Shown here: positions 4,191-23,854 of the stretch, one piece after another
How positions within the stretch are numbered: the stretch's first letter is position 1
Layout: each line of letters begins with the position of its first letter
DNA from: a phage
Sequence record: PZ179881.1
Strand: one strand, 5' to 3'
DNA length: 41,801 nucleotides
Position numbers and translations under genes: made by a program
The notes under the pieces: generated by a model
Database searches by the model: none
What the model was told of the DNA's origin: nothing
The model's input: only the letters and a program-made list of their open reading frames with translations

Positions 4191-4503
4191 AACCTCGCTT
4201 TAACCTGTGGGTTAGCCGGGTTGCCCTGTGCTTTACTCTGTGCGGTATCCTGTGCGTTAACCGGGTTGTACTCACCACGTCCCGCAGGTTTATCAGAGTC
4301 GCCACGGGTTAGACTCAAGGGTTATCGGTTGGTGAGTTTAGCAGTTACATCACCGGGTAACGAGGGTATCGGGTTAACAGTGGCTATAGTAACAGGGTTA
4401 GCCGGGAGTGTCAACCGGGTTTATTCATTGGGTTACTCATTGGTTTAAATCCGGGTAGACAGGCGGCCTATCTGTATCTTCTGCCATTACCCAGAGAGTA
4501 AAT

Positions 4504-4527
4504 CTGAATTGGCACCCCTATAGTAAC
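4504..4527 (+). promoter_or_regulatory. Phage RNAP promoter (CTGAATTGGCACCCCTATAGTAAC) in terminal/leader region
   Basis: One of four near-identical + strand copies of yTGAwTTGGCACyCCTATAG; resembles the SP6/K11 class of single-subunit RNAP promoters (xxCACTATAG core); predicted +1 at the final G (4523). Confidence 0.65.
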
Positions 4528-4565
4528 AGAACGGTCGAATGCGGCTTGTGTATCTGTTACGGCGG

Positions 4566-4770
4566 TAACCCGGAGGGAAGGGAGGGAGGAGAGAGACACG
4601 GGAGAGAGTAACCCAGAGAGGAGACTACCCGGAGAGACTACCCAGAGCATAGCCCAGAGGTTAGCACCCAGAGAGTAACCCAGAGGAGAGCAACCCGGAT
4701 AAGCTAACCCGGTTAACAGACACGGAGAGCAAGCCAGAGAGTAACCCGGCATAGCATAACCCGGAGAGCT
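4566..4770 (+). repeat. Array of about 13 short purine-rich direct repeats (CCCrGAGAG-type units, period about 12-13 bp)
   Basis: Visible tandem units such as ACCCAGAGAG, CCCGGAGAG, CCCAGAGGAGAG, often followed by TAA or CTA; starts about 40 nt downstream of the phage promoter at 4504. Confidence 0.6.
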
Positions 4771-4805
4771 ACCGCCTATAGTAAACCCGGCTAACCCTGG
4801 TTAAC

Positions 4806-4817
4806 CTGCACTCGCAA
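4806..4817 (+). repeat. Recurring hairpin motif copy 1 (CTGCACTCGCAA)
   Basis: Core GCACTCGCA, potential TGC-ACTC-GCA stem-loop; intergenic, ~30 nt upstream of the sigma70-like promoter. Confidence 0.5.
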
Positions 4818-4848
4818 AGGGTATCTGTAAATAATTTCTAAAAGAGTG

Positions 4849-4878
4849 TTGACACGGGCTAATCAGTATTGCTATAGT
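4849..4878 (+). promoter_or_regulatory. Sigma70-type host promoter candidate (early)
   Basis: TTGACA (4849-4854), 18-bp spacer, TGcTATAGT extended -10 (4870-4878); AT-rich stretch upstream (4826-4846). Confidence 0.5.
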
Positions 4879-4988
4879 TCACATCGTCGAAGGGCAACAC
4901 GGAAACGGATAGCCCAGAGATACCCGGTCAAGCGGGTTAAGTAGACAGCCTGCTCAGTCATACGAACAACAGGCACTTGACAAGATGT

Positions 4989-5029
4989 GATGTAACGTAG
5001 TACCTTAGTAACCGATGTAACGCAGTACC
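4989..5029 (+). repeat. 16-bp direct repeat pair GATGTAACGyAGTACC
   Basis: Copies at 4989-5004 and 5014-5029 differ at one position; between a TTGACA box (4977-4982) and the first early ORF; candidate protein-binding site. Confidence 0.45.
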
Positions 5030-5088
5030 GCTCTTTAACAATCCGGGTAATCTATCAAGTGATGCCGTCTAACAATGAGGGTAACACG

Positions 5089-5400
5089 ATGGAATTAAAG
5101 AAACAGTTGACACGCTATAAACGCAGTGCTAACGTAGAAAAGCTCCACCAGACGCTAAGCGCTGAGGCGATGCAGAAGGATGGGCAAGCGGCACGACGCC
5201 GCAAGAAACAGCTAAGCGAGCGGCTTTACATTCCGCAAGTTATAAGCTCTAATGACTTCTCCGATAAGGGGAACATGCGCAAGACGGCAGCTAGGAGCAA
5301 TCAGGGCAACGTCCGCGCCATCGGCAATAAGACCGATGTTAAGATTAACAGCTATTGGTCAAGTAAACGCGGCGATAACATGCCGAAAGATAAAGGTTGA
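5089..5400 (+). CDS. Hypothetical early protein (very basic, low complexity)
   Basis: ATG at 5089 with GAGGG 7 nt upstream (track ORF 5059 begins at an upstream GTG); first ORF after the terminal promoter region; coding status less certain because composition looks atypical. Confidence 0.45.
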   Translation: MELKKQLTRYKRSANVEKLHQTLSAEAMQKDGQAARRRKKQLSERLYIPQVISSNDFSDKGNMRKTAARSNQGNVRAIGNKTDVKINSYWSSKRGDNMPKDKG

Positions 5401-5453
5401 CAGCTACGGCGTCACCTGATAGATTACCCGGACAGTTAGCCAGTGACCGCAAC

Positions 5454-5465
5454 CCGCACTCGCAA
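5454..5465 (+). repeat. Recurring hairpin motif copy 2 (CCGCACTCGCAA)
   Basis: Core GCACTCGCA flanked by AACCC ... GGGTT, which can extend the stem; in the ORF-free gap. Confidence 0.5.
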
Positions 5466-5936
5466 GGGTTCAAACGGTTGAGTCACTGAGTTAACAAATC
5501 GCTTGACACTAAGCGATAACATGATGTAAAGTGATTACCGAGTTGACACGATGTTGGTGTCCTCCACGGCAGGGCGAGTAAACAGCCAGCCGATGCGCAG
5601 TCCTCCGGCGCGATGAGTCCTACGGGACGGTAGATGGGGAGGCCGAGCTAGGATTTAGGTCACATAAAATAATCCGAAGGGTGTGTGGCGAGCATTACCG
5701 TCTTATAGTCGAAAGGCTCACGGTAGGAATCGCGGCAAAGGTTCTCTTATCCAGTCAGTACAGGGATAACGTCCGATGCCACCAACGAGATAACATCCAG
5801 AGACGCTGGACGGTTGGAACTGAGTACGCTTAACGGTGGAAATGGGAAGGCTTGCGTAGTGATGTTATCTGGTTGGTTAATGTAAGCGTCATTGATGTGA
5901 TGGCGCTGACTTTAACTAACAACTGAGGATATAATC

Positions 5937-6506
5937 ATGGCAACTGCAAAAATCAACTTCGCTAAACTGACCACCACTGAGCAGATGGACGCGGCAATCG
6001 CCAACGTAGCAGAACGCTCTAACCTGCTGCAAGCTGACATTCAGCACGTCGCTGTAGCTATCCTGTGCCACGCCTTCCGTACTGGCGACTACACTCGTGC
6101 TAACACGCTGCACGATGCGCTGGGTGCTGGTGTACGCCGCAAGGGTCTGGTAGCGTGGTTCAGCAAGGGTGGCCTCAAGGTGTCTGAGAAAGAGCAGGCA
6201 TTCGTGGGCTTTGAGCAAGACCTTGATGCCCTGCGTATCAAGGCTGAGAAGGGTGACGACAAGGCTAAGGCTAAGGTCGTGGCTCACCTCGACGCGATGA
6301 AGAAACAGAACTGGTGGGACATGAAGCCGGAGAATAGCTTCGCTGGCTTTGACTTTGAGGCTGAGGTTGCCCGCCTGATTAAACGTGCGCAGAAAGCCAT
6401 TGAGAAGGATGGCGCTACGCCTTCCGATGCTAAGGGTGAGGACTACAAAATGACTGTGACGCCTGAGAAGCTGGCCCAGCTCAAGGCTCTGGTAGGTGCA
6501 GCATGA
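5937..6506 (+). CDS. Hypothetical early protein
   Basis: 189-aa ORF, GAGGA 7-8 nt upstream of ATG; no recognisable motif. Confidence 0.7.
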   Translation: MATAKINFAKLTTTEQMDAAIANVAERSNLLQADIQHVAVAILCHAFRTGDYTRANTLHDALGAGVRRKGLVAWFSKGGLKVSEKEQAFVGFEQDLDALRIKAEKGDDKAKAKVVAHLDAMKKQNWWDMKPENSFAGFDFEAEVARLIKRAQKAIEKDGATPSDAKGEDYKMTVTPEKLAQLKALVGAA

Positions 6507-6781
6507 TTAAGTCTATCAGCGTGGCGGTGCCTGAGCACCGCGCTGTACCCTGCAAGTCAAAGGTGAGCTGGTCGTCACCATTCCATAGCCGCGTGAAGTA
6601 TGAGGAGTACCTCAAGCGCTATGACTATGTGGTGGGTGTCAATGGTGTGGCGTTTATCACCCGCACCTTGAAGCATAACGGCCTCGTGATGATTGCGACG
6701 GTCAAGGTGTACTTTGAGAATGCACCTGTGGTAGAGTTCAGCTATGCGCCAAGTCATGCGCTGCTGGAATCCCTTGCGTAA
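6503..6781 (+). CDS. Hypothetical early protein
   Basis: 92-aa ORF whose ATG overlaps the upstream stop (ATGA), suggesting translational coupling. Confidence 0.6.
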   Translation: MIKSISVAVPEHRAVPCKSKVSWSSPFHSRVKYEEYLKRYDYVVGVNGVAFITRTLKHNGLVMIATVKVYFENAPVVEFSYAPSHALLESLA

Positions 6782-6901
6782 TGTGTTTGGTGTGTGGTGC
6801 TGGTTAACTCCCGGCACCACTGACCACGACAACTACCTCCTGATGTATGGGTGGAATGTCAAGGTGACTCAATGGAGAAGGTGACAGGCCGATGGCTTGC
6901 T

Positions 6902-6912
6902 TGCACTCGCAG
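6902..6912 (+). repeat. Recurring hairpin motif copy 3 (TGCACTCGCAG)
   Basis: Intergenic, ~40 nt upstream of the ORF starting at 6951. Confidence 0.5.
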
Positions 6913-6950
6913 GCCATTATCATGTTCCCTAATGATGTGAGGATGTAACG

Positions 6951-7355
6951 ATGTTTACTGTATTCCTGAGCGCGTTCCGTGGTGAGCGCACGTTTGAGCA
7001 GAACGTACTGAAATCTGCTGAGCTGGCTTCCCTGCTGATTAATCAGGGCTATACGCCGGAAGTGGTGGCGGGATTCTACCCGGAGAACGGCGGCCAGACC
7101 GTGACGTTTGAGCAGTCCTACGCCGTGCGTGTTGAGACGTATGCTGAGTGCGTCAAGTTGGCACAACTGGCGGGCGATGCGTTCCAGCAGGAATGTGTCC
7201 TGGTGGTCGATGTGCTTGACCGCATGGCTGCATCGTACCTGTACCCGGCTGGTGACTCCACGACTGAGGGTTACCTGCGTCGCCAGACTGAGCAGCCAGA
7301 GGGTGCGCGTAGTCAGTGGCGCGGTGCGTGGTGGACTATTGAGGCGACTGCGTGA
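6951..7355 (+). CDS. Hypothetical early protein
   Basis: 134-aa ORF with GAGGA upstream of ATG. Confidence 0.65.
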   Translation: MFTVFLSAFRGERTFEQNVLKSAELASLLINQGYTPEVVAGFYPENGGQTVTFEQSYAVRVETYAECVKLAQLAGDAFQQECVLVVDVLDRMAASYLYPAGDSTTEGYLRRQTEQPEGARSQWRGAWWTIEATA

Positions 7356-7912
7356 TGTGGTGGGATTGTGGATTAGCGATATACGATACGCTCCGGTTTA
7401 TAGAGGATGTGAAGAAGATGGAGAAATTACATGGGGTTATGGCTACTCGCGGTCATTGTGTGGGTAATGGCGGTCTTCGCGGTCATTCGGTTGGTCGCTA
7501 TTTCCCGTGCGTGATTTACATGAAGGGTAACCCGTCACAGCTAACGTGGTGGGTGCGCCAGCCTAATGGCGTGGATGCTGGGCCGCATAAATCCTACGAG
7601 GAGGCGGCTATGACGGCGCACAGCTACAACACCGGGCAGTGTGAGGACACTATCCGGGAAGTGTACCTGATGAAGGTGCAAGTTAACGAGGACAAGGCTA
7701 CCGGGGAAACTGACTGCGTAGCCTACTGCATGGCGGAGGAGATACCCTTCGATGTGTACGGATTGTACGGCGTGACTCCCGAAGGGTTGAGCCTGCATCT
7801 GTGTGATTATGACCGCTACCCGGCAGCACGGAATGAGTTAGCCCGTGCGCAAGGTCTGGTAGCTGGTGGCCCTGTACTGTATCGTGACCTGCTGGAGGCA
7901 CTCAATGACTAA
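7355..7912 (+). CDS. Hypothetical early protein
   Basis: ATG at 7355 overlaps the upstream TGA; an alternative start at ATG 7418 has a better SD (GAGGATG... 7403-7407). Track ORF 7352 starts at GTG. Confidence 0.55.
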   Translation: MWWDCGLAIYDTLRFIEDVKKMEKLHGVMATRGHCVGNGGLRGHSVGRYFPCVIYMKGNPSQLTWWVRQPNGVDAGPHKSYEEAAMTAHSYNTGQCEDTIREVYLMKVQVNEDKATGETDCVAYCMAEEIPFDVYGLYGVTPEGLSLHLCDYDRYPAARNELARAQGLVAGGPVLYRDLLEALND

Positions 7913-8147
7913 GACACAACGCCGTATCAATAAGCGCAACCTGATTCGTAACAGCCGCCGCTACCGTGTGGTAACCGGGGAGGGTAACGGGCATTACTTT
8001 CCGGTCGGCACCATTGTACGCCATGCTGACGCTGAGCATTACGCTGATGTAGGCGGCTCTGAGTCAGAGAATAACTTCCTTGTCGTTGAGACAGGCAAGG
8101 TACGATTCCCACTCAAGCAGTGGGTAAGCCCGCGAGATATCGCATAG
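7905..8147 (+). CDS. Hypothetical early protein
   Basis: ATG 7905 preceded by GGAGG (7895-7899); in frame with track ORF 7866-8147, whose N-terminal extension is rejected. Confidence 0.55.
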   Translation: MTKTQRRINKRNLIRNSRRYRVVTGEGNGHYFPVGTIVRHADAEHYADVGGSESENNFLVVETGKVRFPLKQWVSPRDIA

Positions 8148-8164
8148 TAGGCTGGCCGAAGCGT

Positions 8165-8175
8165 TGCACTCGCAG
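8165..8175 (+). repeat. Recurring hairpin motif copy 4 (TGCACTCGCAG)
   Basis: Intergenic, flanked by AAGCG ... CGCTT, ~50 nt upstream of the ORF starting at 8223. Confidence 0.5.
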
Positions 8176-8222
8176 CGCTTTATCAAGCATACTAACTGAA
8201 TATGATGATGAGGATTTGATGT

Positions 8223-8450
8223 ATGAACCGCGTAGTTTACTCCACCGATGCCGCTCACCCTGCGTACCGCAACCCACTGGTCGAGCAACCTGCTGAATCC
8301 ATGCGGGAGTGGGAAGAACGCCCACGCCGCACAAAGCGCGAGTGCCGCGATGCACATAATGCGCTGAACATTGAGTACCGCCGCCGTGCCGCCGCGTGTG
8401 GCATGACCTTTGAGGGCTACCTTGCCCGCTTCAACATAACCCTGAAATGA
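8223..8450 (+). CDS. Hypothetical early protein
   Basis: 75-aa ORF, GAGGA 8 nt upstream. Confidence 0.6.
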   Translation: MNRVVYSTDAAHPAYRNPLVEQPAESMREWEERPRRTKRECRDAHNALNIEYRRRAAACGMTFEGYLARFNITLK

Positions 8451-8460
8451 GGATGTTAAT

Positions 8461-8988
8461 ATGACCCGCACTATCTACCCAGGCTTGAAAGTCCGCGTCC
8501 GTGATGATGCCGCTGGCGTTAATTCGTGGAACATCGGCAAGGTGGTTACCATCGCGCAGGTGTATGGTAATTGGGCGTTGTACTACTACGACGATAACCC
8601 GACCCGCTACCGCATGACGCTGTTTAACTTCTGGAATCGCTTCGAATCGCTCGAAGTGAAAGGCCCGTTCCCTGACGACGAGCCGCAGGTATTCAACGAT
8701 GTGCGCCAGGCACCGCTGGGTATGGTGCTGCGCTATGACCTCGACGGTGAAGCGCCTTCCCGTGGTGCTAAGTATCCGTATGTCGTCCGCCTGTACTCCG
8801 GGCTGCACGGCTGGTGTCGTAATCGTGGGGCATGGGTGCCGATTCCGGCAGACCACGAGGGCGCATGGCTGTTCAACCTGAAAGACGTGTGGCCTGTACC
8901 AGCGCAGTGGACTGAGGCATTCGAGTACCCGATGCCATCCAATGCAATCCTTTATGTTCAACGTGTAACGGGAGCTGACAATGCTTAA
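8461..8988 (+). CDS. Hypothetical early protein
   Basis: 175-aa ORF, GAGGA upstream; Trp/Tyr-rich, no recognised domain. Confidence 0.65.
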   Translation: MTRTIYPGLKVRVRDDAAGVNSWNIGKVVTIAQVYGNWALYYYDDNPTRYRMTLFNFWNRFESLEVKGPFPDDEPQVFNDVRQAPLGMVLRYDLDGEAPSRGAKYPYVVRLYSGLHGWCRNRGAWVPIPADHEGAWLFNLKDVWPVPAQWTEAFEYPMPSNAILYVQRVTGADNA

Positions 8989-9364
8989 CCGACTGACTTT
9001 AATCATCCGCCCGGCGTCCAGCTATCACGCCCAGATTAAGAAGATACTGACCGACGAACGCTTCGACCACCAGTTCGGCTCGTTGCAGGTAGAGAACGCT
9101 GATACCGGACACACGGAAGACGTGGTGCTGGTGACCTGCGTGGACTTCCACGATGTAGGCGTAGTGATTGAGAAGCTGCGCACCCGTATCAATCCGAGCT
9201 ACTATCTGGTTGATGCGAGCAAGGCGGTGTTCAGCTACCACCATGTTAACCGCAAGCTGACCGCGCTGGGTTATCTGTACCAGTCCGACGTGGTGCTTCA
9301 CACGTATAACCGCCACATCAAAGTAGGCGACACTAACTATTCATTCTGGGAGAGCAAAGCATGA
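8981..9364 (+). CDS. Hypothetical early protein
   Basis: 127-aa ORF, GGGAG upstream, overlaps neighbours by a few nt. Confidence 0.6.
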   Translation: MLNRLTLIIRPASSYHAQIKKILTDERFDHQFGSLQVENADTGHTEDVVLVTCVDFHDVGVVIEKLRTRINPSYYLVDASKAVFSYHHVNRKLTALGYLYQSDVVLHTYNRHIKVGDTNYSFWESKA

Positions 9365-9657
9365 GCAAGAAAGCAGACGCATTGAACGGGGCAAAGGCAC
9401 GTATCGTAACGCTGGAGCGAGCCTACGAAGGGCTTGAGGGTAAGTACGCCCAGCTTCAAGCGCGGGCTGTGGTGGCTGAGCGCCGCTTCGAGTCAGCGCT
9501 GAGTGAGCTGGAGAACAAACACGCAGAGCTGGCTAACTGCCGTGGCCTGAATACCAGCCTGATTAAGAAGCTGGAGACGGCTCGCATCTGGGCTGTGGTC
9601 TTCGGCCTGCTGCTGGTAACCACCATCGGAACAATCGCAGGAGGTGTGTTCGCATGA
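9361..9657 (+). CDS. Hypothetical small membrane protein (coiled-coil N-terminus, C-terminal TM anchor)
   Basis: 98 aa; heptad-like charged helix then C-terminal hydrophobic segment IWAVVFGLLLVTTIGTIAGGVFA; GGGAGAG upstream; ATGA overlap with upstream gene. Confidence 0.6.
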   Translation: MSKKADALNGAKARIVTLERAYEGLEGKYAQLQARAVVAERRFESALSELENKHAELANCRGLNTSLIKKLETARIWAVVFGLLLVTTIGTIAGGVFA

Positions 9658-10082
9658 GCACTGGCACCGCACTGGTTCACCCGGATACCGCCAAGCTAAC
9701 GCCTGATGAGCAGAAGAAGGGCATCTACCACTACACGCCGCCAGAGGTTCTGGCGTTTAACAATGGCGAGCGCCTGACGGAGGACGACCTTGAAATCGTC
9801 AAGAAATTCTACGGTGGAGTTATCCCCAACATTACGCCGCATGACGTACCGGATGCGATACCCGCAGCTCCAGCAAATCCCGCGCCGCGACGTGTCGAAG
9901 CAAGCCCTGCACTCGCAGCACCTTACGGCGGTGCAAAGCGATTAGTGCGGCGGCGCACGGTGCAACCGGGGGCGGTGCCGCTGGTTGATATCACGAAACA
10001 ACTGGCAGCTAACCTGTCAGAAGATGATGCGTGGGCCGTACTGGTCACGCTGGCTCAACGATTCGATTTAGAGGTAGAGTAA
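9654..10082 (+). CDS. Hypothetical early protein (Pro/Ala-rich linker)
   Basis: 142-aa ORF with AGGAGG 9 nt upstream. Confidence 0.6.
   Translation: MSTGTALVHPDTAKLTPDEQKKGIYHYTPPEVLAFNNGERLTEDDLEIVKKFYGGVIPNITPHDVPDAIPAAPANPAPRRVEASPALAAPYGGAKRLVRRRTVQPGAVPLVDITKQLAANLSEDDAWAVLVTLAQRFDLEVE
9907..9918 (+). repeat. Recurring hairpin motif copy 5 (CTGCACTCGCAG)
   Basis: Inside ORF 9654-10082. Confidence 0.45.
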
Positions 10083-10083
10083 C

Positions 10084-10410
10084 ATGGCCAAGACCTTCAA
10101 GATTAACGCAAACTTCACCGCAACCCTGAGCCTGCAAACTGCTGGCGTTGATGAGTATGTCCGCGCCATCCGTGAAGCCGATGAGGTCGGCGAAATGGGT
10201 GAGTTCAGCAAGCGTCTGGTGAGCCTGCTGGACGAAGGCAAGACCGACGAGGCGCTGGTGATGCTGTTCAAGCACGGCATCCGCGCTGGCCTGAAAGACC
10301 TGGGTGACCAGCTCAACAACGAACTGCTGGAAGACCACGGCAAGTTCAAACACGCCCCGGCTACGGTATCCGTAGTCCCTGCAACCCCTCTCAATGTTGA
10401 CGCGGAGTAA
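10084..10410 (+). CDS. Hypothetical early protein (acidic)
   Basis: 108-aa ORF, GAGG upstream. Confidence 0.6.
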   Translation: MAKTFKINANFTATLSLQTAGVDEYVRAIREADEVGEMGEFSKRLVSLLDEGKTDEALVMLFKHGIRAGLKDLGDQLNNELLEDHGKFKHAPATVSVVPATPLNVDAE

Positions 10411-10415
10411 TGACG

Positions 10416-10673
10416 ATGAATGCGATTAAATTCCTGACTAACCTGCTGGTCAAGGCGTACCAGAAAGAAGCTGCCCGCGTACAGGCCGAGGCCGACAAGC
10501 TGGCGCAGGCACAAGCCGCCGAAGCGCTGAATGCAGTAGAGCTGGCGAAGGCTGCCGAGGTAGCCCGCGAGCAATCCGTAGAGCTGGGCCGTCAGAAGAC
10601 CGCCGCAGCCGACCGCGCCGCAGGCATCGCTGCCCGTGGCAAACAAGTTGAAGCCTTCTTCCTGGGAGAGTAA
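10416..10673 (+). CDS. Hypothetical protein (Ala-rich coiled coil)
   Basis: Track ORF 10410-10673; second in-frame ATG at 10416 has better SD spacing (GGAG 10403-10406). Confidence 0.5.
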   Translation: MNAIKFLTNLLVKAYQKEAARVQAEADKLAQAQAAEALNAVELAKAAEVAREQSVELGRQKTAAADRAAGIAARGKQVEAFFLGE

Positions 10674-10677
10674 GCGA

Positions 10678-10902
10678 ATGGAAATCATCAAAGTAGAAAT
10701 CATCTTCAAGCACACGCTGGCTGATAAAGTCAAGAACCTGTTCCGCCCGAAGGCCAAGCGCTTCCCGGCAGTCGCAACCTTCACCGGGTTCGATGCGGCG
10801 AGCCATAGCACTCAGGGTGTGCGGGTACGCTGGGGCCAGAACGCCTACCACTACCCGTGGCATCAGGTGAAACGTCTCAAGCTGACGTACAAGCCGGAGT
10901 AA
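10678..10902 (+). CDS. Hypothetical protein
   Basis: ATG 10678 preceded by GGGAGAG; in frame with track ORF 10636-10902, whose N-terminus would overlap the upstream gene. Confidence 0.5.
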   Translation: MEIIKVEIIFKHTLADKVKNLFRPKAKRFPAVATFTGFDAASHSTQGVRVRWGQNAYHYPWHQVKRLKLTYKPE

Positions 10903-10910
10903 TACAGCTA

Positions 10911-10933
10911 CAGGGTGGCGCTGTGCTGCCCTG
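10911..10933 (+). terminator. Hairpin at the early/replication boundary (possible terminator or processing site)
   Basis: CAGGGTGGC-GCTGT-GCTGCCCTG (9-bp stem with two G-U pairs) followed by a T-containing run TGTCGGTGTT; between the last early ORF and primase. Confidence 0.3.
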
Positions 10934-10962
10934 TGTCGGTGTTAATCCGTGAGGTAATGGTA

Positions 10963-11631
10963 ATGGCTAGACAGATTGAGAAACGGCTCTGGTTGCCGCA
11001 GGCGCGGCTTCTTCCCGTTGGTCATGACGATAAGATAATCCACAAAGGGTGTGGTGATAGACCGTCGCTGTTCATCAAGAACGACGACGATAAGTATTGG
11101 TGCTTCTGCCACCGCTGCCACGGCGGTGACTTCATGCCGAAGACATTGCAGCGAGTCAAGCAGAAGCTGGCACCTAAAACCGGATGGGTGCCGGAGGATA
11201 TCATCCCGCTTATGGATGCGGTGGTGAGTGAGCCTTACAACTTCCGTGAAATCTTCGAACGATATAGGATTAGTCCTTATGTTTCAATTCTTCGGTTTGC
11301 GCGTGATACGAAACGCATATACCTTCCTGATTCATCTGGTTCGCTCATGGGCCTGGATGCTACGGGGCAGGCCATTGCCCGGTTCTATTCCCCGCACAAG
11401 CGAAACCTGGCGGTATTCTATGGTGACAATCCTGGTAGCCTTGTTGTTACTGGAGGCATTGAGGAGTATCTTACTCGTTGCAAGGCTAATGAGTCCGCAA
11501 TCCTGGTGATGAACCGGGCCGCTGAGAAGGCCGCACTTGCAGAGCTTTCGAAGGGTTCGTATACGAATCTGGTCGAAGGCAAGTTTCTTAAAGACGGGTT
11601 CAAGCGTGACCTGCGAATGTTCAAGGAGTAA
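10963..11631 (+). CDS. DNA primase (zinc-ribbon plus primase core)
   Basis: Cys4 zinc-binding motif CGDRPSLF...CFCHRCHGG near N-terminus; lies directly upstream of helicase; start chosen at ATG 10963 (GAGG 8 nt upstream) rather than track GTG 10915, which falls inside a hairpin. Confidence 0.6.
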   Translation: MARQIEKRLWLPQARLLPVGHDDKIIHKGCGDRPSLFIKNDDDKYWCFCHRCHGGDFMPKTLQRVKQKLAPKTGWVPEDIIPLMDAVVSEPYNFREIFERYRISPYVSILRFARDTKRIYLPDSSGSLMGLDATGQAIARFYSPHKRNLAVFYGDNPGSLVVTGGIEEYLTRCKANESAILVMNRAAEKAALAELSKGSYTNLVEGKFLKDGFKRDLRMFKE

Positions 11632-12878
11632 TGATGTTAGATAAACTGCTGGTAGCAACACTGGCTGACCGCACACGATACAAGGCGCTGGCTAAGCAGG
11701 TGCCTCTGGGTGAGCTGGGGACGTCAACCGAGTGGCTCATCAAGTCGTTCGGCACGTTCTTCGACCGTAACCCGGAGGCGAAGCAGGTCGATTATGATGT
11801 GCTCCGCACGATGGCGCGGCTCAAGCTGGAGAATCAGGAGTCTGCCCCGGTGCTGACGCTGATTGACAAGGCGGCGGAGATTAAGGTCACGCCGGAACAA
11901 ATCAACAACACGTCCCTGATGCTGATGGAGCAGGGCTACGCCGGGCGAGTCGCTACACTGGTTAACCGATACCAGGACGGCGAGGAGCTGGACATTAGCC
12001 ACGAGCTTTACAAAGAGACGATGGCGATGCGCAAGCAGATTGGCGCGTCGGCTGAAACCATGTTTGAGGAGCCGGATATCCATGAGATACTTGCTGAGCA
12101 AGCTCGTGACGAAGGCCTTAAATTCCGACAGACTTGTTTGCAGGAGTTCATCAAAGGTCTTATGCCCCCGCTGTCAGTTGCTTTCTGTGCTGGAGTGGAC
12201 TCTGGTAAGACCTCGTTCCTCTGCGACGCCCTCACCTACTTCGCGCCGCAGGCGGAGAAGCTCTGGCCAGGCCGCCCGATACTCTGGTTCAGCAACGAAG
12301 GCGTCGTCCGCGAAATCTGGCCTCGTCTCTACTCCGCTGCCCTCGGAATGGATGGGAAGAAGTTAGCCCACATGCCAGCGCGTGACCTGTATAAGAAGTA
12401 CGAGGATGCGCTGGGCGGCAACCGCCACAAGATTAAGCTGAAAGATGCACACGGCTGGTCACTGGCTCAGGTAGCCGGGGTGGTTGAGGAGATGAATCCA
12501 ATCATCGTCGTGTTCGACATGCTGGCTAACTTCAAGTTACCCGGCGTGGAGAAGCGCCACGAGAAGATGGAGGCGTTGTTCCAGGAGGTGCGTGAGATGG
12601 CAGCGCTGCATGACTTCATCGCTATCAGCACCGTCCAGTTGAGCGCCGAGGGTTACGACATGCTGTACCCGCCAGGCACCGCATTGAAGGATGCGAAGAT
12701 TGGTATTCAGGGTGCGCTGGATATCCAGATTAACATGGGCCGCTTGAACGACCAGGCTTACGAGGCGATTCGCGGGTTCAGCCTGCCGAAGAACAAGCGT
12801 AAGATGGTAGGCAAGTCCAGTAACATGAAGGCTGAGGTGTTGTTCCAGCCTGACTTAGCGAGGTTTATTGACAATTGA
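11631..12878 (+). CDS. Replicative DNA helicase (DnaB/T7 gp4 helicase-domain-like)
   Basis: 415 aa; Walker A-like AGVDSGKTSF; AAGGAG upstream; ATG overlaps primase stop. Confidence 0.75.
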   Translation: MMLDKLLVATLADRTRYKALAKQVPLGELGTSTEWLIKSFGTFFDRNPEAKQVDYDVLRTMARLKLENQESAPVLTLIDKAAEIKVTPEQINNTSLMLMEQGYAGRVATLVNRYQDGEELDISHELYKETMAMRKQIGASAETMFEEPDIHEILAEQARDEGLKFRQTCLQEFIKGLMPPLSVAFCAGVDSGKTSFLCDALTYFAPQAEKLWPGRPILWFSNEGVVREIWPRLYSAALGMDGKKLAHMPARDLYKKYEDALGGNRHKIKLKDAHGWSLAQVAGVVEEMNPIIVVFDMLANFKLPGVEKRHEKMEALFQEVREMAALHDFIAISTVQLSAEGYDMLYPPGTALKDAKIGIQGALDIQINMGRLNDQAYEAIRGFSLPKNKRKMVGKSSNMKAEVLFQPDLARFIDN

Positions 12879-13048
12879 ATCAGGACATAACTATCTGCCA
12901 GTGCAGCCGCATGTACGACGACCTGACAATGCAGGTGATTTATAGAACATGCAAGCGCTGCACAATGCGCAAAGAGGAGGCGGCTAAGGCCGCTGTCCGT
13001 AACGCACCGATTAAACGTCTGCAATTACTGGAGGACATTCATGGTTAA
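12875..13048 (+). CDS. Possible small zinc-ribbon protein (uncertain, non-ATG start)
   Basis: Not in ORF track (<60 aa). Frame open from 12872; TTG 12875 would give 57 aa containing C-x-C...C-x2-C (ICQCS...RTCKRC); an ATG at 12911 would give 45 aa lacking the first Cys pair; weak SD. Confidence 0.25.
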   Translation: MNQDITICQCSRMYDDLTMQVIYRTCKRCTMRKEEAAKAAVRNAPIKRLQLLEDIHG

Positions 13049-13232
13049 TATTCAGCAAGTAGTTGAGATTGCTAAAGAAACCCACGGTGGCAAGGATATG
13101 TTCTTGCATGAGCTGGCTGAGGGTATGTGTGGTGCATTCCGCTGTGAAGGGCTGCATTGTTCGAACTGTCCGTTTAACAACGGGGACGCTCTGAAAGAGC
13201 ACATCATTGAATTGGCGGGAGAACTGGCATGA
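13041..13232 (+). CDS. Small Cys-rich hypothetical protein
   Basis: 63 aa with GGAGGA 6 nt upstream; Cys cluster CGAFRCEGLHCSNCP. Confidence 0.55.
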   Translation: MVNIQQVVEIAKETHGGKDMFLHELAEGMCGAFRCEGLHCSNCPFNNGDALKEHIIELAGELA

Positions 13233-14134
13233 GCAGCTTAACCGTAATGAAGGGCGTGGCGTTCACGCAGAAGCGCCTGCTGCAATGGCTCAAGGAGGAC
13301 GGCAAGGTAGTCGTCCAGACTAAGCGCGACGAGATTCGTTGTGTGGCTAAGGTGGAAGACACTGGCGTAACCTACACCAGCGCCAGCGGCAAGCCCCTCT
13401 ACAACATACACCAGGCGTTCAGCAACCTGTTCACCATGCTGTTTGAAATGACAGGGCTGACGAAGTTCGACATGGGTGTGAGCGTGAACAACTCCTTCGA
13501 CTTGACGAAGCGTGTAGTTCGTGCTAGCAAGAAGCAGTACGACTGCCGTGGCCAGATTGAGTACGAGTTCTGGGACGGCACGAAGAAGAATCCGATTCAC
13601 GTCTACACCGGGCCGCTCACTATGGAGTTCTGGCTGTATGACCTGCCGGAGCTGGGGTGGAAGCCCTACGAAGAACGCCGGAAGATGATGGCTGAGCTGT
13701 GCCGCATGGCAGGTAACAGCCTGTTCTGCCCGGAGACAGAGGTGGTGACCAGCGAGAAGGATGTGTACCAGATACACGACATGCTCATCGGCCTGGGCCA
13801 CGAAGGTACAATGGTCAAGCGCTTCGACCACCGCTACACCGAAGGCCGGACAGTAGACTGGATGAAGTTGAAGCCAGAGGATGAAGTTGATGTGGAAATT
13901 ATCGGCTACACGCCAGGAGAGAACGGCTTCGAAGGAATGGTGGGGTCGCTTATCGGCAGAGCAGAGGACGGCAGCACTGTCAGTTTTAGCGGATTTACGC
14001 TTGAGCTTCGACGGGAACTCACTGATAATTTTGAAGCGTATCGTGGACGCTGGGCCGAGGTTCGCTATATGCAGCGCGATTCTCAAGGCGGCTACCGCCA
14101 CCCGCGCTTCTACCGCTGGCACCCCGATAAGTAA
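13229..14134 (+). CDS. ATP-dependent DNA ligase
   Basis: 301 aa; nucleotidyltransferase-like motifs (LKEDGK / KRDEIR region, EGTMVKR, DWMKLKP, C-terminal RHPRFYRWHPDK); position before DNAP as in phiKMV-type genomes. Motif I is atypical, so moderate confidence. Confidence 0.65.
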   Translation: MSSLTVMKGVAFTQKRLLQWLKEDGKVVVQTKRDEIRCVAKVEDTGVTYTSASGKPLYNIHQAFSNLFTMLFEMTGLTKFDMGVSVNNSFDLTKRVVRASKKQYDCRGQIEYEFWDGTKKNPIHVYTGPLTMEFWLYDLPELGWKPYEERRKMMAELCRMAGNSLFCPETEVVTSEKDVYQIHDMLIGLGHEGTMVKRFDHRYTEGRTVDWMKLKPEDEVDVEIIGYTPGENGFEGMVGSLIGRAEDGSTVSFSGFTLELRRELTDNFEAYRGRWAEVRYMQRDSQGGYRHPRFYRWHPDK

Positions 14135-14199
14135 TCCACGGGAAATACCAGAGGACGCGAAGTTCCCTAAAGACTGGCACTTGACAGGGTGGAATTGAC

Positions 14200-16668
14200 A
14201 TGGCTATGAAATGCCTGATTCACGACTGTGAAACAGAAACTAACCCGTGGTATGGACAGGTGGCATCGCCGTACTGCCCGGATAACTACGTGGTTGAGGA
14301 CGCCTGGGAGACGGTAACCCTGGGCGGTGAGGTGGAGATTAGCCCGCGTACCGACCGCCGCTACAACTCGCTTGAGGAGTGGAAGGGCAACTGGTCTGTG
14401 GACTTCTCCGGGATTGATATCTACGTGGCCCACAATGCTGCGTATGAAATGAGCTGGTTACTGGAGCACGACTATGATAACTTCATGGCGTTTCTCAAAC
14501 GTGGTGGTCGTGTTTATTGTACCGCTTACGCTCACTATCTACTCAGCAACATGCAGGACACTTACCCCGCGCTTAACGACGTTGCACCAATCTACGGCGG
14601 TACGCCAAAGGTGGATGCAGTCAAGGCACTATGGGAAGCTGGCGTTAAAACGTCGGATATTGACCCGGCGCTACTTCGGGAGTATCTGTTCGGGCCTAAC
14701 GGCGATATCGCCAACACCACCAAAGTTTTCCTGGGAACGTGGTCGGAGCTTGTTAGACGTAACATGTTGAAGATGGCGCTGGTGCGCATGGATGGCCTGC
14801 TGTTCTCTGCCATCTGTATGCACCACGGCTTGAAGGTTGACATGGAGGTAGCGGAGCGTGACCGCAGCCGTAACGAGCGGTTGCTGGAAGGCCTGCACTC
14901 GCAGGTGATTCAGTATCTGCCAGCGGATATGCCCGCCGAAGCCCGTGCGCAGTTCACCGGGACACGCTTCCAGTTGTCGGCGTTCATCTTCGGTGGCGCT
15001 ATGAAGTACACGGCGCGAGTACCGCGTGAGGATGCCGACGGCAATCCCATCTACGTGAAGAAGGAAGGGCCGTACTTCAAGAGCATCAAAGGAGCGCTGC
15101 CAGAGAGCGCCTGCATGTTCGACGAGGAGGCAGGTGGCCTTTGGTATTCCCCGGAGCTGAAAGAGCACCAGGCGCGTTACACGGCAGGTAAGAACAAAGG
15201 CCTGCCGAAGTTCGATAAGTATGTGACCGACGAGGTTGATACGAAGAACGGCGACCTGCTGTATCACTTCCCCGGCCTGCTGTCTGAGGAGGTGCAGGAG
15301 AAGCTGAGCCTGGCGATTGAGGGTGAGTGGTCTGGTAGCCAGAAGCTGCAAGACGGCAGCCCGGTAATCAGCACCAGTGGTGACGTGTTGGATGTGCTGG
15401 CGGCGCACGACGTGCCAGTAGCTAAGTTGTTGAAAGATATCGGGAAGATTGATAAAGACCTCGGTGCATTCTACATCAAGCGCACGTTCAACAAAGATGG
15501 CAGCTTGAAGAAAGAAGGCGGCATGTTGCAGTACGTGCAGCCGGACGGCTTCATTCACCACACGCTGAACCACACGAGCACCGTGACGGCGCGACTCAGC
15601 TCGAACAAGCCGAACCTCCAGCAGTTACCACGAGCGGAGGAAGCGCGGGACGAGAACGAGTTCAAGTCCACGGTTAAGGAAATGTTCGTGAGTCGCTTCG
15701 GTGACGACGGCGGCATCCTCCAGGAGGACTACAGCGCACTGGAGACGGTTGGTTTGCAGGTGTTGACCCGCGACGTTAACCTCAAGGCTGCGCTGCTCAA
15801 AGGCCTGGACATGCACTCTATGCGCCTCGCGGCGATGGAGAACCAGACCTATGAGTACGTGGTGGCGCGTACCAAAGACGACACGCACCCTGAACACGCT
15901 GAGTGGGACGTGAAGCGTACAGGCGTTAAGCCAGTTGCATTCCAGTATCAGTATGGTGCGACGGCTTACGGCATGGCGATGAGCACTGGTAAATCCCAGG
16001 ACTTCTGCCAGGCGTTCATTGACGCGGAGAAGAAGGCGTTCCCCGGCGTTGAGGACTGGTACGACAACACGGTGTACCCGACGGTGGAAGCGACGGCAGC
16101 GCAGAACAAGCCTATCCGTGTGCAGCTCGACGACGGGCGTTACGTTATGTTCGGCTGGGGTACGTTCACTACCCACGACGGCACGACGTATCAGTTCCGC
16201 CAGCAGAGCAAGCAGCGTTGGAATCCGGTGACTAAGAAGCGTGAGGAAGTCAAGGAGTTCACGGTGCCGCAGATGCGTAACTACCCGATTCAGGGCGCAT
16301 CCGGTTTCTTCGTGCAGCTCGCTTGCGGTATGCTGATTCGTCACTTCATCGCCAACGACTTCTACGGTGGCAAGTGCCTGCCGATTAACACGGTTCACGA
16401 TGCGTGTTACTTCGACACTCACAAAGACGTAGTGTACCAGGCAGCGTATGAGGTGGAGGCCATCATGGAATCCATCCCGGAAATGCTGAATGCACTGTGG
16501 CCTGCGTATCAGTGTGAGGTGCCGTTCCCGGTGGCAGGTGGCTTCGGTAAGAACATGGCCGAGGAGCACCACGTTTACGACAAGGATAGCAAAGACCTGT
16601 TCAAACAGCAGAAAGCGAACTTCAAGAAAGAGTTCCTTGCTAAGAAGGGTATCGCGGTTCAATTCTGA
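14200..16668 (+). CDS. DNA polymerase (family A, with 3'-5' exonuclease domain)
   Basis: 822 aa; exo-like HDCETETNPWYG near N-terminus; pol I-type motifs (SSNKPNLQQLPR, NYPIQGASG, VHDACYFD). Confidence 0.9.
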   Translation: MAMKCLIHDCETETNPWYGQVASPYCPDNYVVEDAWETVTLGGEVEISPRTDRRYNSLEEWKGNWSVDFSGIDIYVAHNAAYEMSWLLEHDYDNFMAFLKRGGRVYCTAYAHYLLSNMQDTYPALNDVAPIYGGTPKVDAVKALWEAGVKTSDIDPALLREYLFGPNGDIANTTKVFLGTWSELVRRNMLKMALVRMDGLLFSAICMHHGLKVDMEVAERDRSRNERLLEGLHSQVIQYLPADMPAEARAQFTGTRFQLSAFIFGGAMKYTARVPREDADGNPIYVKKEGPYFKSIKGALPESACMFDEEAGGLWYSPELKEHQARYTAGKNKGLPKFDKYVTDEVDTKNGDLLYHFPGLLSEEVQEKLSLAIEGEWSGSQKLQDGSPVISTSGDVLDVLAAHDVPVAKLLKDIGKIDKDLGAFYIKRTFNKDGSLKKEGGMLQYVQPDGFIHHTLNHTSTVTARLSSNKPNLQQLPRAEEARDENEFKSTVKEMFVSRFGDDGGILQEDYSALETVGLQVLTRDVNLKAALLKGLDMHSMRLAAMENQTYEYVVARTKDDTHPEHAEWDVKRTGVKPVAFQYQYGATAYGMAMSTGKSQDFCQAFIDAEKKAFPGVEDWYDNTVYPTVEATAAQNKPIRVQLDDGRYVMFGWGTFTTHDGTTYQFRQQSKQRWNPVTKKREEVKEFTVPQMRNYPIQGASGFFVQLACGMLIRHFIANDFYGGKCLPINTVHDACYFDTHKDVVYQAAYEVEAIMESIPEMLNALWPAYQCEVPFPVAGGFGKNMAEEHHVYDKDSKDLFKQQKANFKKEFLAKKGIAVQF
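14892..14905 (+). repeat. Recurring hairpin motif copy 6 (CCTGCACTCGCAGG)
   Basis: Perfect 5-bp stem CCTGC/GCAGG with ACTC loop, inside the DNA polymerase gene. Confidence 0.45.
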
Positions 16669-16684
16669 ATTGACACCCCTATAC
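16665..16684 (+). promoter_or_regulatory. Degenerate promoter-like element (CTGAATTGACACCCCTATAC)
   Basis: Two mismatches to consensus, including the predicted +1 (G to C); overlaps the DNAP stop; followed by CCCAGAGTAACC, which matches the terminal-region repeat unit. Confidence 0.25.
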
Positions 16685-16735
16685 CCAGAGTAACCAAATC
16701 AGTACACAAAGTAACCTAACTGGAGAGTAACCTAT

Positions 16736-18516: not shown

Positions 18517-18520
18517 CATT

Positions 18521-23828: not shown

Positions 23829-23854
23829 TAACAGTAAGATAACCTGGGTTAACC

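Follow-up and report, generated by a model that had tools for sequence, protein, structure and literature searches.

Interval 5401–5936 of phage PZ179881.1 is a real, non-coding gap, and on balance we regard it as the main control region for early transcription in this T7-like phage, together with the leader. Comparison with relatives strongly supports two predicted host RNA polymerase (sigma-70) promoters at its start, P1 and P2, and a ~390-nt untranslated leader, without a conserved open reading frame (ORF), that would be transcribed from P2 ahead of gp2 and the remaining early and middle genes. The putative leader core, an H-type pseudoknot (5641–5675) followed by two helices (5688–5780), is strongly supported too, and the covariation of the leader fold is strong. 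We describe the gap as early promoters joined to a conserved leader RNA, and lean somewhat towards a core that acts in cis and keeps host RNA polymerase elongating.

Genomic setting and coding content of the gap

The window, by which we mean the whole 41,801-nt stretch analysed, comes from a Cronosvirus (Autographiviridae, Melnykvirinae) with ~96% identity to GAP227 and Kc318. Its gp1 gene stops at 5400 and the gp2 ATG lies at 5937, leaving 5401–5936 as the interval between both; a gp1–gp2 gap of 0.5–0.6 kb is retained in all Melnykvirinae relatives compared. A preliminary description, made from the letters of the window, had reported no + strand ORF longer than ~20 codons here. The noncoding gap is real, but longer frames do exist, namely a GTG ORF of 50 codons (5681–5833) and a TTG ORF of 30 codons (5397–5489), the longest ATG ORF having 21 codons. 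The 50-codon frame is not conserved: the homologous GTG in relatives opens 14–54 codons of unrelated sequence with frame shifts, and no ORF in the gap keeps both length and frame among relatives.

The flanking genes were searched against Pfam, NCBIfam and PDB sequences, with nothing informative for either gp1 or gp2, and PHROGs assigns both to families of unknown function only. The gp1 product is a small basic protein with no recognisable RNA-binding family among the families searched. No tRNA or tmRNA was found in the window. The phage RNA polymerase gene lies at 21357–23828, ~16 kb from P2, and the leader itself lies in the region expected, by analogy with T7, to enter the cell first.

Promoters at the start of the gap

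P1 (5397–5425, + strand) is predicted from a −35 hexamer TTGACA (5397–5402), a 17-nt spacer and a TG-extended −10 TAGATT (5420–5425), and overlaps the gp1 stop codon. P2 (5503–5532, + strand) is predicted from TTGACA, an 18-nt spacer and TAAAGT, with an expected start at ~5539–5540. Both score 10/12 in a consensus scan, P1 with the TG included (TGaTAGATT), and its 17-nt spacer and TGaTAGATT make P1 appear the better promoter candidate. The P1 −35 is invariant across 10 relatives of three genera, with a −10-like hexamer (A2/T6) at the same spacing, while TTGACA, a 17–18-nt spacer and TAnnnT recur at the P2 position in 15 of 16 relatives; Arno160 has no TTGACA there. P2 is annotated as a promoter in the GAP227 record.

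Two TTGACA hexamers (5503 and 5543) and a possible −10, TAAAGT, had been pointed out earlier. All three are present, at 5503–5508, 5543–5548 and 5527–5532, the last 18 nt past the first hexamer. The promoter reading holds for 5503 with TAAAGT, which form a conserved pair, but not for 5543, which was rejected as it has no −10 partner in the scan, sits inside a leader hairpin and is absent beyond the closest relatives. A third TTGACA, the one of P1 at 5397–5402, had been overlooked. The hexamer is not enriched genome-wide (21 observed versus 19 expected); six + strand copies cluster within 4849–5548. The best + strand promoter matches in 4300–24200 lie at 4849, 5397 and 5503, with 5906 and 18944 also scoring 10/12, and no additional strong sigma-70 promoter was found over the ~16 kb between P2 and the RNA polymerase gene.

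Elements upstream of the leader

A 33-nt inverted repeat brackets gp1, its 5' arm at 5036–5068 and its 3' arm at 5406–5438 (+ strand) being 88% complementary. These arms would pair in transcripts from upstream promoters as a long-range duplex around the whole gp1 ORF. A search of eight relatives belonging to several genera found such a repeat in seven, with arms of 26–34 nt and 83–92% complementarity whose sequences are mutually unrelated; among the eight, Ahp1 is without it.

Between P1 and P2 lies hairpin 1 (5435–5495, + strand), with a stem AGTGAC/GTCACT and an apical AACCC-GCACTCGCA-A-GGGTT, which appears in both minimum free energy (MFE) and centroid folds. Its stem and loop sequences hardly vary from genus to genus; phi80-18 has the one compensatory variant, AGTAAC/GTTACT. 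The preliminary description had noted a hairpin motif at 5454–5465; the motif GCACTCGCA is indeed present, at the corrected position 5456–5464. It occurs in six exact copies, on the + strand only, where our own arithmetic for any 9-mer, over 2 x 41.8 kb, gives an expectation of ~0.3. A pattern search of IMG/VR with hairpin 1 was set aside, almost all of its 106 matching stretches being due to chance.

Further upstream, a near-exact rrn boxA (CGCTCTTTAACAA) is found at 5029–5041, 360 nt 5' of the gap in the gp1 leader, and is kept in most relatives. Within 5401–5936 the boxA test (GCUCUUUAACAA) returned only a partial CUUUAAC at 5910–5916, limited to some D4 types. Because boxA lies outside the gap, 5' of P1 and P2, transcripts from P2 would be without it.

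Predicted fold of the leader RNA

The + strand folds at −172.6 kcal/mol with z = −3.2, as against z = −0.6 for the − strand, and all domains described here are on the + strand. Fold predictions place several hairpins, of variable sequence between genera, in a first domain, D1 (5540–5637); the TTGACA at 5543–5548 lies within one of them, GACAC/GTGTC (5545–5549/5557–5561). The pseudoknot core (5632–5675), found by pattern scan and supported by a swap test and pair counts, starts with the conserved AGAUGGGG (5632–5639). Its 5' strand GGCC (5641–5644) pairs with GGUC (5658–5661), and a linker GAGCUA (5645–5650) leads to helix H, in which GGAUU (5651–5655) pairs with AAUCC (5671–5675). The 15-nt loop of helix H supplies the GGUC in its 5' part and is A-rich in its 3' part.

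Two further helices complete the leader core, which spans 5632–5780. Helix H2' (5688–5733) is closed by GCGA/UCGC (5688–5691/5730–5733) and continues in an inner stem UUACCG/CGGUAG (5695–5700/5721–5726) and a predicted apical hairpin AGUC-GAAA-GGCU (5707–5718); GAGCAU in its internal loop is invariant in 10 type-1 sequences. Helix H3' (5734–5780) is closed by GGCA/UGCC (5734–5737/5777–5780), with inner stems GG/CC (5740–5741/5773–5774) and UUAUCC/GGAUAA (5747–5752/5764–5769), and equivalent helices of other sequence were read by eye in Kaonashi, ISAO8, phiR8-01 and EspYZU13. A closing helix GCUG/CAGC around the junction shows wobble-only variation and is missing in several subtypes, and was left unproven. 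Hammerhead, tRNA-like and k-turn readings of GCUGA...GA, made by eye, were abandoned, since the elements come in the wrong order.

The 3' portion of the leader is made up of D3 and D4. D3 (5781–5877), either one long hairpin or a branched domain, is closed by ACCAACGAGAUAACAUC/GAUGUUAUCUGGUUGGU, arms of a 17-nt inverted repeat with 94% complementarity. It is a mosaic module whose sequence type co-segregates with the gp2 allele, and similarity to GAP227/Kc318 is lost from roughly 5750–5790 until ~6850. D4 (5873–5920) is a predicted hairpin of ~20 bp with two small symmetric mismatches and a core at 5882–5892/5900–5910, and stops 5 nt 5' of the gp2 Shine-Dalgarno GAGGA (5925–5929). By our reading of the folds, most of 16 relatives have a 17–24 bp hairpin at this position, in differing sequences. 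By analogy with T7 R0.3, D4 is probably an RNase III site. Such a site in an intergenic leader takes at least ~20 bp of near-continuous double-stranded RNA, a length reached in prediction by both D4 (~20 bp) and the duplex around gp1 (33 bp).

Covariation of the leader fold

Covariation across related phages, proposed at the outset as a check on this region, proved strong. In alignment A7, comprising 17 divergent phage sequences of type 2, 93.1% of cells are paired, compared with 33–46% when partners are slid, a figure reached in 0 of 500 shuffles; 14 of 17 pairs are altered on both sides, and both-side changes affect 7/7 pairs of the pseudoknot and 6/6 pairs of helix H. Such changes were seen at 16 of 26 pairs in A6, and at five of six helix H pairs in A4, the type-1 alignment that includes the window. 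The swap test showed that cognate pseudoknot strands outpair non-cognate ones (p <= 5e-5). Close relatives contribute as well: A1, with four phages ~96% identical overall, has nine compensatory pairs in H2' and H3' with 99% of cells paired. Four of these lie in H2' between this phage and Kc318 (100% of cells paired), and five in H3' against GAP227.

G-U and U-G pairs are common in the leader helices, which fits a + strand RNA, since the opposite strand would have A-C mismatches. Within the helices, substitutions are compensatory rather than synonymous for the GTG ORF. Conserved unpaired core nucleotides include AGAUGGG, GCUGA, GARCG and the H3 loop GGUnnUGCA. The near-invariance of 5432–5700 among the four phages of A1 had raised the idea of a leader more conserved than its neighbouring genes. 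This was rejected, because the four phages are ~96% identical genome-wide and the contrast stems from mosaic replacement between ~5790 and ~6850.

Distribution of the motif

Compensatory substitutions maintain the fold across several genera, in phages with hosts in Cronobacter, Kosakonia, Serratia, Yersinia, Pectobacterium, Klebsiella, Escherichia, Aeromonas and Vibrio, and motif loci include unclassified Vibrio phages and uncultured 40–50 kb contigs. Among 20 pattern matches in IMG/VR, 14 hold the whole motif. At every locus examined, a consensus sigma-70 promoter lies 100–350 nt 5' of the motif, whatever gene comes next, and such a promoter precedes it in 10/10 uncultured contigs examined. 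Contigs L250 and L255 carry a gp1-like gene downstream of the motif; the basic gp1 family adjoins it on either side, and no gp2-like gene was found in the examined stretches of L249, L253, L255 and L256. Downstream of the pseudoknot the types differ, with two long helices in one and a 3- or 4-way junction in the other.

A covariance model, R1, was built from type-2 members. It matched the Vibrio phages IME271 (78.8 bits) and 526E57-1 (31.2 bits) as well as the type-1 phage Kaonashi (26.6 bits), and missed the copy in the window at E <= 1. The latter has GAGCUA in place of the GCUGA carried by most members, and is counted as a putative member from alignments A4 and A5, from the flanking motifs it shares and from its position.

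Other searches were negative within their scope. Rfam 15 gave no gathering-score match for the window and the loci of 12 relatives, with chance-level matches only at E <= 10 or E <= 5, and E. coli genomes searched by BLAST with the leader showed neither a match nor complementarity. The type-2 H3 pattern had 93 matches in 185,579 bacterial and archaeal genomes, which is about the chance number, and none lay in motif context; by this pattern the motif is therefore not found in cellular genomes. The type-1 pattern GTGTKTRRCGAGCATYNCC was discarded, as nearly all of its 77 matches in IMG/VR fall in an unrelated prophage coding gene. A single gp2 protein found nothing in IMG/VR, where a gp2 protein profile did work as a search. 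A literature search found nothing on a leader RNA in GAP227 or Melnykvirinae.

Comparison with known systems

Folded leaders behind early phage promoters have precedents in the T7 leader, lambda nut and HK022 put. In T7, strong host promoters (A1–A3) at the left end precede a few hundred nt of untranslated leader, and a long hairpin, the RNase III site R0.3, comes directly before the first major early gene. The present phage shares the left-end promoter cluster, the untranslated leader and the hairpin before an early gene, all as predicted features. It differs in that its leader fold is conserved across genera by covariation, and its RNA polymerase gene lies ~16 kb downstream compared to ~3 kb in T7; no conserved pseudoknotted fold is known to us from the T7 leader. 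The T7-type scheme has been confirmed for the phiKMV-like phage LUZ19, for which ONT-cappable-seq also gave two ncRNA candidates derived from 5' UTRs (PMC10914365). Those Pseudomonas phage candidates are likewise short structured RNAs from phage gene 5' UTRs, although they are defined by transcript ends and reportedly arise by premature termination, whereas here the structure is conserved and RNase III is proposed. With lambda nut and rrn leaders the region has in common a boxA-type signal followed by hairpins and processing stems (the latter predicted here), yet boxA lies outside the gap and P2 transcripts would be without it.

EAR (eps-associated RNA) of Bacillales, a pseudoknotted RNA located within an operon, makes host polymerase antiterminate processively. 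Its setting is bacterial rather than phage and its fold is another one, and the Rfam scan at E <= 10, which covers EAR if it is in release 15, gave no match to it. HK022 putL/putR, which are cis-acting antiterminator RNAs, also lie downstream of early phage promoters read by host polymerase and precede a long operon. The putRNA is located just past these promoters and exerts its effect over at least 10 kb; it consists of ~70 nt in two stem-loops arranged in a V shape, with no pseudoknot (PMC9378689). Both RNAs have a compact fold with a possible triplex, in stem I of put and in the A-rich pseudoknot loop here. The leader core is different in being ~150 nt long, with an H-type pseudoknot and two or three helices, in showing no sequence similarity to put, and in belonging to a lytic phage with its own RNA polymerase. 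In HK022, suppression of pausing and termination goes with binding of put to the beta' zinc-binding domain, and the leader is likened to it by position and architecture only.

Proposed function and alternative explanations

On the strongly supported reading, host RNA polymerase starting at P2 produces the ~390-nt leader, which folds into a conserved multi-domain RNA. RNase III might then cut the D4 hairpin, as at T7 R0.3, releasing a discrete early RNA of ~350 nt and also trimming the gp2 mRNA; in longer transcripts, 5406–5438 paired with 5036–5068 might offer a second RNase III-type duplex around gp1. As we postulate, the pseudoknot core would act in cis on its own host elongation complex, by processive anti-pausing or anti-Rho of the put/EAR kind, and polymerase modified in this way would travel the ~16 kb from P2 to the phage RNA polymerase gene. 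With its many G and few C residues (GC skew between +0.12 and +0.24), the leader would be a poor Rho-loading substrate, though most of the + strand has a positive skew as well. Several observations weigh against cis-antitermination, whose function is read from position and architecture. There are few intrinsic-terminator-like sites on the + strand of the early region, which leaves Rho as the only obvious target, and the upstream boxA already gives transcripts from upstream promoters a Nus-factor route. The architecture 3' of the pseudoknot varies by type, which is unusual for an RNA that docks on a single fixed surface; D3 and D4 follow the gp2 allele, so that a UTR role specific to this gene would suit that portion; and the type-2 model R1 misses the window copy. 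More tentatively, the core may represent a new phage RNA class that either binds the host elongation complex, as a put-like antiterminator or anti-Rho element of unrelated structure, or neutralises a host factor or defence. Under this proposal T7-like phages with a distant polymerase gene would secure early transcription and transcription-driven genome entry. An action on host RNA polymerase or Rho would make it only the second phage RNA shown to do so, and would help to explain how phiKMV-like phages have the host enzyme transcribe ~16 kb before their own polymerase; a trans-acting RNA would be a candidate RNA-based host-takeover or anti-defence factor. Either way, the leader would be a compact testable element, relevant to engineering therapeutic phages of Melnykvirinae.

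The preliminary description had offered an early non-coding RNA, a long structured 5' UTR for the gene at 5937, or a replication origin. The first two are supported, by a covariation-backed RNA running from a conserved sigma-70 promoter to the D4 hairpin and ending just before the gp2 ribosome-binding site, and they are probably one object. Were the ~350-nt leader released by RNase III to act in trans, it would titrate a host factor or defence component, candidates being RNase E, Hfq or ProQ, Rho, a toxin endoribonuclease or a nucleotide messenger, maybe together with gp1. The consensus-like promoter in the first-expressed region of the genome, the probable processing hairpin at the boundary, the independence of the core from the downstream gene, the adjoining basic gp1 family and the AAAU-like runs in the A-rich pseudoknot loops all speak for this. 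We nevertheless consider it rather unlikely: A-rich third loops are generic in H-type pseudoknots, the E. coli genomes searched hold no similar or complementary sequence, and gp1 has no recognisable RNA-binding family. The same RNA could be an ordinary, if long, 5' UTR governing how gp2 and the early mRNA downstream are translated or stabilised, either as a 5' stabiliser or as an alternative-pairing switch hiding and exposing the gp2 ribosome-binding site. In E. coli, structured 5' ends shield mRNAs against RNase E, the D3 and D4 types sort with the gp2 allele, and GGUUGGU (5871–5877) can pair with either ACCAAC (5781–5786) or UUUAACUAAC (5911–5920) by the Shine-Dalgarno. This explanation is unlikely, as the core lies 150–250 nt from the ribosome-binding site and is tied to the promoter rather than gp2, stability alone needs no conserved pseudoknot with invariant loop and junction nucleotides, and a cut by RNase III at D4 would remove the core from the mRNA.

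A riboswitch-like sensor, in which the core binds a host metabolite or ion and tunes early transcription to host state, would suit the compact pseudoknotted core, its conserved unpaired nucleotides and its location within a leader. It appears very unlikely, given that no Rfam riboswitch class matches, no terminator or ribosome-site-sequestering helix is seen beside the core, downstream genes give no ligand clue and the architecture differs between types. The third early suggestion, a replication origin, found no support, and we judge a DNA-level element of this kind, or a small-protein gene, to be most improbable despite the non-coding stretch close to the genome left end and the 50-codon GTG ORF. 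G+C content is 47–54%, with no iterons or AT-rich block; the repeats in the gap are helix arms only, stable folding is specific to the + strand and G-U pairs are used. The GTG ORF is truncated or frame-shifted in relatives, and the helix substitutions are compensatory.

The leader fold is unannotated in all phage records examined, and the records of several relatives carry spurious reverse-strand ORFs annotated across the leader RNA.

Genome context of the gp1-gp2 gap

The window is the complete genome of a T7-like phage of the GAP227 group (Autographiviridae, Melnykvirinae, Cronosvirus), with ~96% genome-wide identity to GAP227 and Kc318 (median 0.97 in 250-nt windows). It is circularly permuted with respect to the GenBank records, position 867 of GAP227 corresponding to 5300 here. 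All genes lie on the + strand, among them that of the phage RNA polymerase (21357-23828). The gap (5401-5936) runs from the stop codon of gp1 (5089-5400; PHROG 9286, a small basic protein) to the ATG of gp2 (5937-6506; PHROG 1448), neither gene having an assigned function. A gp1-gp2 gap of ~0.5-0.6 kb occurs in all the Melnykvirinae relatives compared (Cronosvirus, Aghbyvirus, Wanjuvirus, Pienvirus, Pokrovskaiavirus, Ahphunavirus and unassigned members) and in Vibrio phage G1. The preliminary description of the gap was essentially right, with its TTGACA hexamers and GCACTCGCA motif placed correctly to within 2 nt, and in kind the gap is nothing unusual, namely an early promoter and leader region. 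The description's claim that the + strand has no ORF beyond ~20 codons must be amended, as there is a 50-codon GTG ORF at 5681-5833; this ORF is, however, not conserved, the homologous GTG in relatives opening 14-54 codons of unrelated sequence, and a small protein encoded in the gap is thus unsupported. The proposed replication origin found no support either. Hypothetical proteins are annotated on the reverse strand over the leader RNA in GY3 (L005 991-1539), phiR8-01 (L116 886-1128) and Vibrio phage 526E57-1 (L343 1041-1338); reverse-strand ORFs across the gap in GenBank records are probably spurious gene calls.

Promoters at the start of the gap

In a sigma-70-type scan of the + strand (4300-24200), the top matches all fell at the left end: at 4849 (TTGACA, 18 nt, TATAGT), at 5397 (P1; TTGACA, 17 nt, TG-extended TAGATT) and at 5503 (P2; TTGACA, 18 nt, TAAAGT). 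P1 and P2 are conserved consensus matches, the P1 -35 being invariant across ten aligned sequences and P2 having near-consensus hexamers in 15 of 16 relatives; the exception is Arno160, where TTGACA was not found at the P2 position. Two TTGACA boxes had been reported at the start of the gap, which overlooked the third copy at 5397, overlapping the end of gp1. Of the promoters proposed from those two boxes, P2 is kept in relatives but the hexamer at 5543 is ruled out, because it has no -10, sits in a leader hairpin (GACAC 5545-5549 / GTGTC 5557-5561) and is missing beyond the closest relatives. The other matches at 10 of 12 positions (5906 and 18944) have weaker first hexamers, and that at 5906, abutting the gp2 ATG, is probably a chance match. 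A good sigma-70-like match on the - strand (4414-4386; TTGACA, 17 nt, TACTAT, with TG) points leftwards and opposes all genes; an antisense promoter is present at the left end of LUZ19 (PMC10914365).

A conserved pseudoknot in the leader RNA

The leader, the RNA from P2 to gp2, forms a conserved, strand-specific, pseudoknotted structure. Relative to shuffled controls, 5432-5940 folded as RNA gave z = -3.2 for the + strand vs -0.6 for the - strand. Comparison across genera revealed a conserved core in the form of an H-type pseudoknot, made up of a conserved AGAUGGG sequence, a short upstream strand (GGCC, 5641-5644), a linker (GAGCUA in the window, GCUGA in most members), and helix H of 5-6 bp (5651-5655 / 5671-5675), with a 13-17 nt loop that opens with a sequence complementary to the upstream strand (GGUC, 5658-5661) and has an A-rich 3' end. 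The pseudoknot strands covary as GGCC/GGUC, GCGCC/GGUGC, CUGCCC/GGGUAG, AGGC/GCCU, GGCAA/UUGCC, AUGGUUG/CGACUAU and CCCGC/GCGGG, cognate strands scoring 12.8 vs 8.4 for non-cognate ones (permutation p <= 5e-5). In A7, a gap-poor alignment of 17 divergent members, 93.1% of cells are paired vs 33-46% after shifting the partners by 1-3 columns, and both sides have changed in 14 of 17 pairs (pseudoknot 7/7, H 6/6), values equalled by 0 of 500 shuffles. A second alignment, A6, agrees, and in A4, restricted to the window's own subtype, five of the six H pairs have changed on both sides. Helices H2' (5688-5733) and H3' (5734-5780) follow, with nine compensatory pairs among four phages otherwise ~96% identical and 99% of cells paired vs 33-42% when slid. 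G-U pairs are frequent in the leader helices, which fits + strand RNA rather than its complement or duplex DNA. The strand-specific fold and its covariation support the earlier readings of the gap as an early non-coding RNA or a long structured 5' UTR.

Searches of Rfam 15 at gathering and permissive thresholds returned no match to the leader, and assignment to any Rfam family was rejected; no tRNA or tmRNA was detected. No description of the leader RNA was found among the papers searched; PMC10690425 catalogues over ten thousand phage RNA candidates, which may include this one. The gap holds an apparently undescribed, well-supported RNA fold that is worth experimental follow-up.

Subtypes, distribution and linkage

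After H, leader architecture varies between subtypes. Type 1 (window, DevCD, EspYZU13, Kaonashi, ISAO8, phiR8-01, 25AhydR2PP, Ptacy1537) has GA..GUGUGU, a long hairpin with an invariant internal loop GAGCAU and then a second helix. Type 2 (PP2, Arno160, MA13, phi80-18, Vibrio G1, phiAS7, Ahp1, Atoyac13) has GARCG, an optional short hairpin and the strongly conserved hairpin CCAC-GGUnnUGCA-GUGG; GY3 and K59PH2 look intermediate. The type-2 hairpin pattern retrieved 20 stretches from IMG/VR; the complete motif, with further compensatory variants, is present in 14 of them, mostly on 40-50 kb contigs. Run against 185,579 genomes of bacteria and archaea, the pattern gave matches at chance level, none with motif context. 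R1, a covariance model built from type-2 members, scored 78.8 bits in Vibrio phage IME271 (50 kb, unclassified), 31.2 in Vibrio phage 526E57-1, 26.6 in the type-1 phage Kaonashi and 11-16 in other type-1 members. It did not find the window's own copy at E <= 1, so the window's membership rests on alignments A4 and A5, position and the flanking motifs it has in common with members (AGAUGGGG, GGCC, GGUC, AAGGGUGUGUG, CGAGCAUU).

A TTGACA-N16-18-TAnnnT promoter lies 100-350 nt upstream of the motif in all ten uncultured contigs examined. The gene on the 3' side is usually a gp2 homologue; in contigs L250 and L255 it is a gp1-like gene, elsewhere found upstream, and no gp2-like ORF occurs within the stretch examined of L249, L253, L255 and L256. 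With the promoter constant and the following gene variable, the core goes with the early promoter and leader rather than with gp2.

The 3' end of the leader

The leader ends in two further domains: D3, an extended hairpin with a 17-nt inverted repeat at its base (5781-5797 / 5861-5877), and D4 (5873-5920), a ~20-bp hairpin that contains small symmetric mismatches and stops 5 nt short of the gp2 Shine-Dalgarno sequence. At the D4 position, the folds (read by eye) show a hairpin of 17-24 bp, with differing sequence, in most of the 16 relatives. The T7 R0.3-type RNase III site is of similar size and position, from which we infer that D4 is probably an RNase III-type site. Cleavage there would release a free RNA of ~350 nt, with a short leader remaining on gp2; a discrete early RNA would therefore follow from such processing. 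In contrast to the core, D3/D4 sequence type co-segregates with the gp2 allele across genera, and gp2 shares at most 49% protein identity with 15 aligned relatives.

Sequence similarity to GAP227 and Kc318 breaks off at ~5750-5790 and resumes only at ~6850; ~5790-6850 is a mosaic replacement in which the 3' part of the leader, gp2 and the gene after it have little or no detectable DNA similarity to those phages, against ~96% identity in the rest of the genome. The early gene at 6951-7355 matches the S-adenosylmethionine lyase family PF23780 (E = 4e-31), its homologue being labelled 'SAM-dependent methyltransferase' in several relatives.

Elements flanking gp1

A 33-nt inverted repeat (88% complementary) brackets gp1, its 5' arm (5036-5068) just 5' of the gene and its 3' arm (5406-5438) including the P1 spacer and -10. 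The arrangement (26-34 nt arms, 83-92% complementary) recurs across several genera, in seven of the eight relatives searched, Ahp1 being the one without it; arm sequences are unrelated but complementarity is kept. We read the repeat as a conserved long-range RNA duplex around the gp1 ORF in transcripts from upstream promoters, where it would be another substrate of the RNase III type. The 5' arm starts inside CGCTCTTTAACAA (5029-5041, gp1 leader), which differs at one position from the boxA 13-mer of E. coli rrn. An exact copy of its 12-mer core GCTCTTTAACAA sits at the equivalent position in most Melnykvirinae loci and in Vibrio phage G1; Kaonashi, ISAO8, K59PH2 and 25AhydR2PP have it with one change. 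The boxA likeness suggests Nus-factor recruitment to early transcripts, and together with the repeat it recalls the way in which rrn operons arrange leader and processing stem. A 16-nt direct repeat, GATGTAACG(T/C)AGTACC, is present twice (4989-5004 and 5014-5029) between a TTGACA at 4977 and boxA, which directly follows the second copy.

Between P1 and P2, hairpin 1 (5435-5495) presents GCACTCGCA in its apical part. This motif has six exact copies on the + strand (4808, 5456, 6903, 8166, 9909, 14895) and zero on the - strand, most forming a hairpin loop (YU-GCACUCGCA-G) on covarying stems. Relatives of all genera have 2-4 copies per 3 kb of early region, often intergenic and followed by UUUA. 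The hairpin may be a processing or protein-binding element; a boxB-like site for the basic gp1 is pure speculation. The gp1 family has an arginine/lysine-rich middle and a conserved C-terminal motif, KTDxxINSY(W/F)xxKxGDN(L/M)P, and family and structure searches gave no match.

Possible roles of the leader

Our hypothesis is that the core acts in cis, on the host elongation complex that has transcribed it. The leader RNA would be made first, heading a co-directional block of ~16 kb that host polymerase would have to read before the phage enzyme exists, and downstream the only other full-scoring + strand sigma-70 matches (5906, 18944) have weak first hexamers. Host transcription in T7 has the further effect of drawing the genome into the cell. 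A precedent is HK022 put, a small folded nascent RNA just 3' of early promoters that makes polymerase resist pausing and termination for 10 kb or more (PMC9378689); since the fold differs, the leader is not a put-family member. Against action in cis, few intrinsic terminators are predicted on the + strand, the upstream boxA already offers some transcripts a Nus-dependent antitermination route, and the fold varies between subtypes. Alternatively, the leader may work in trans as a decoy or host-takeover RNA, serve as a UTR or stabiliser specific to its gene, or be a riboswitch.

The layout resembles the T7 A1-A3/R0.3 leader and the mapped left-end promoter cluster of the phiKMV-like phage LUZ19, for which 5' UTR-derived ncRNA candidates are also listed (PMC10914365). 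Further to the left is a non-coding, purine-rich stretch (4489-4770) in which direct repeats recur in degenerate form (ACCCAGAGAGTAA and relatives). The stretch maps close to where the GenBank relatives have their left end and may be related to the terminal repeat or to packaging.
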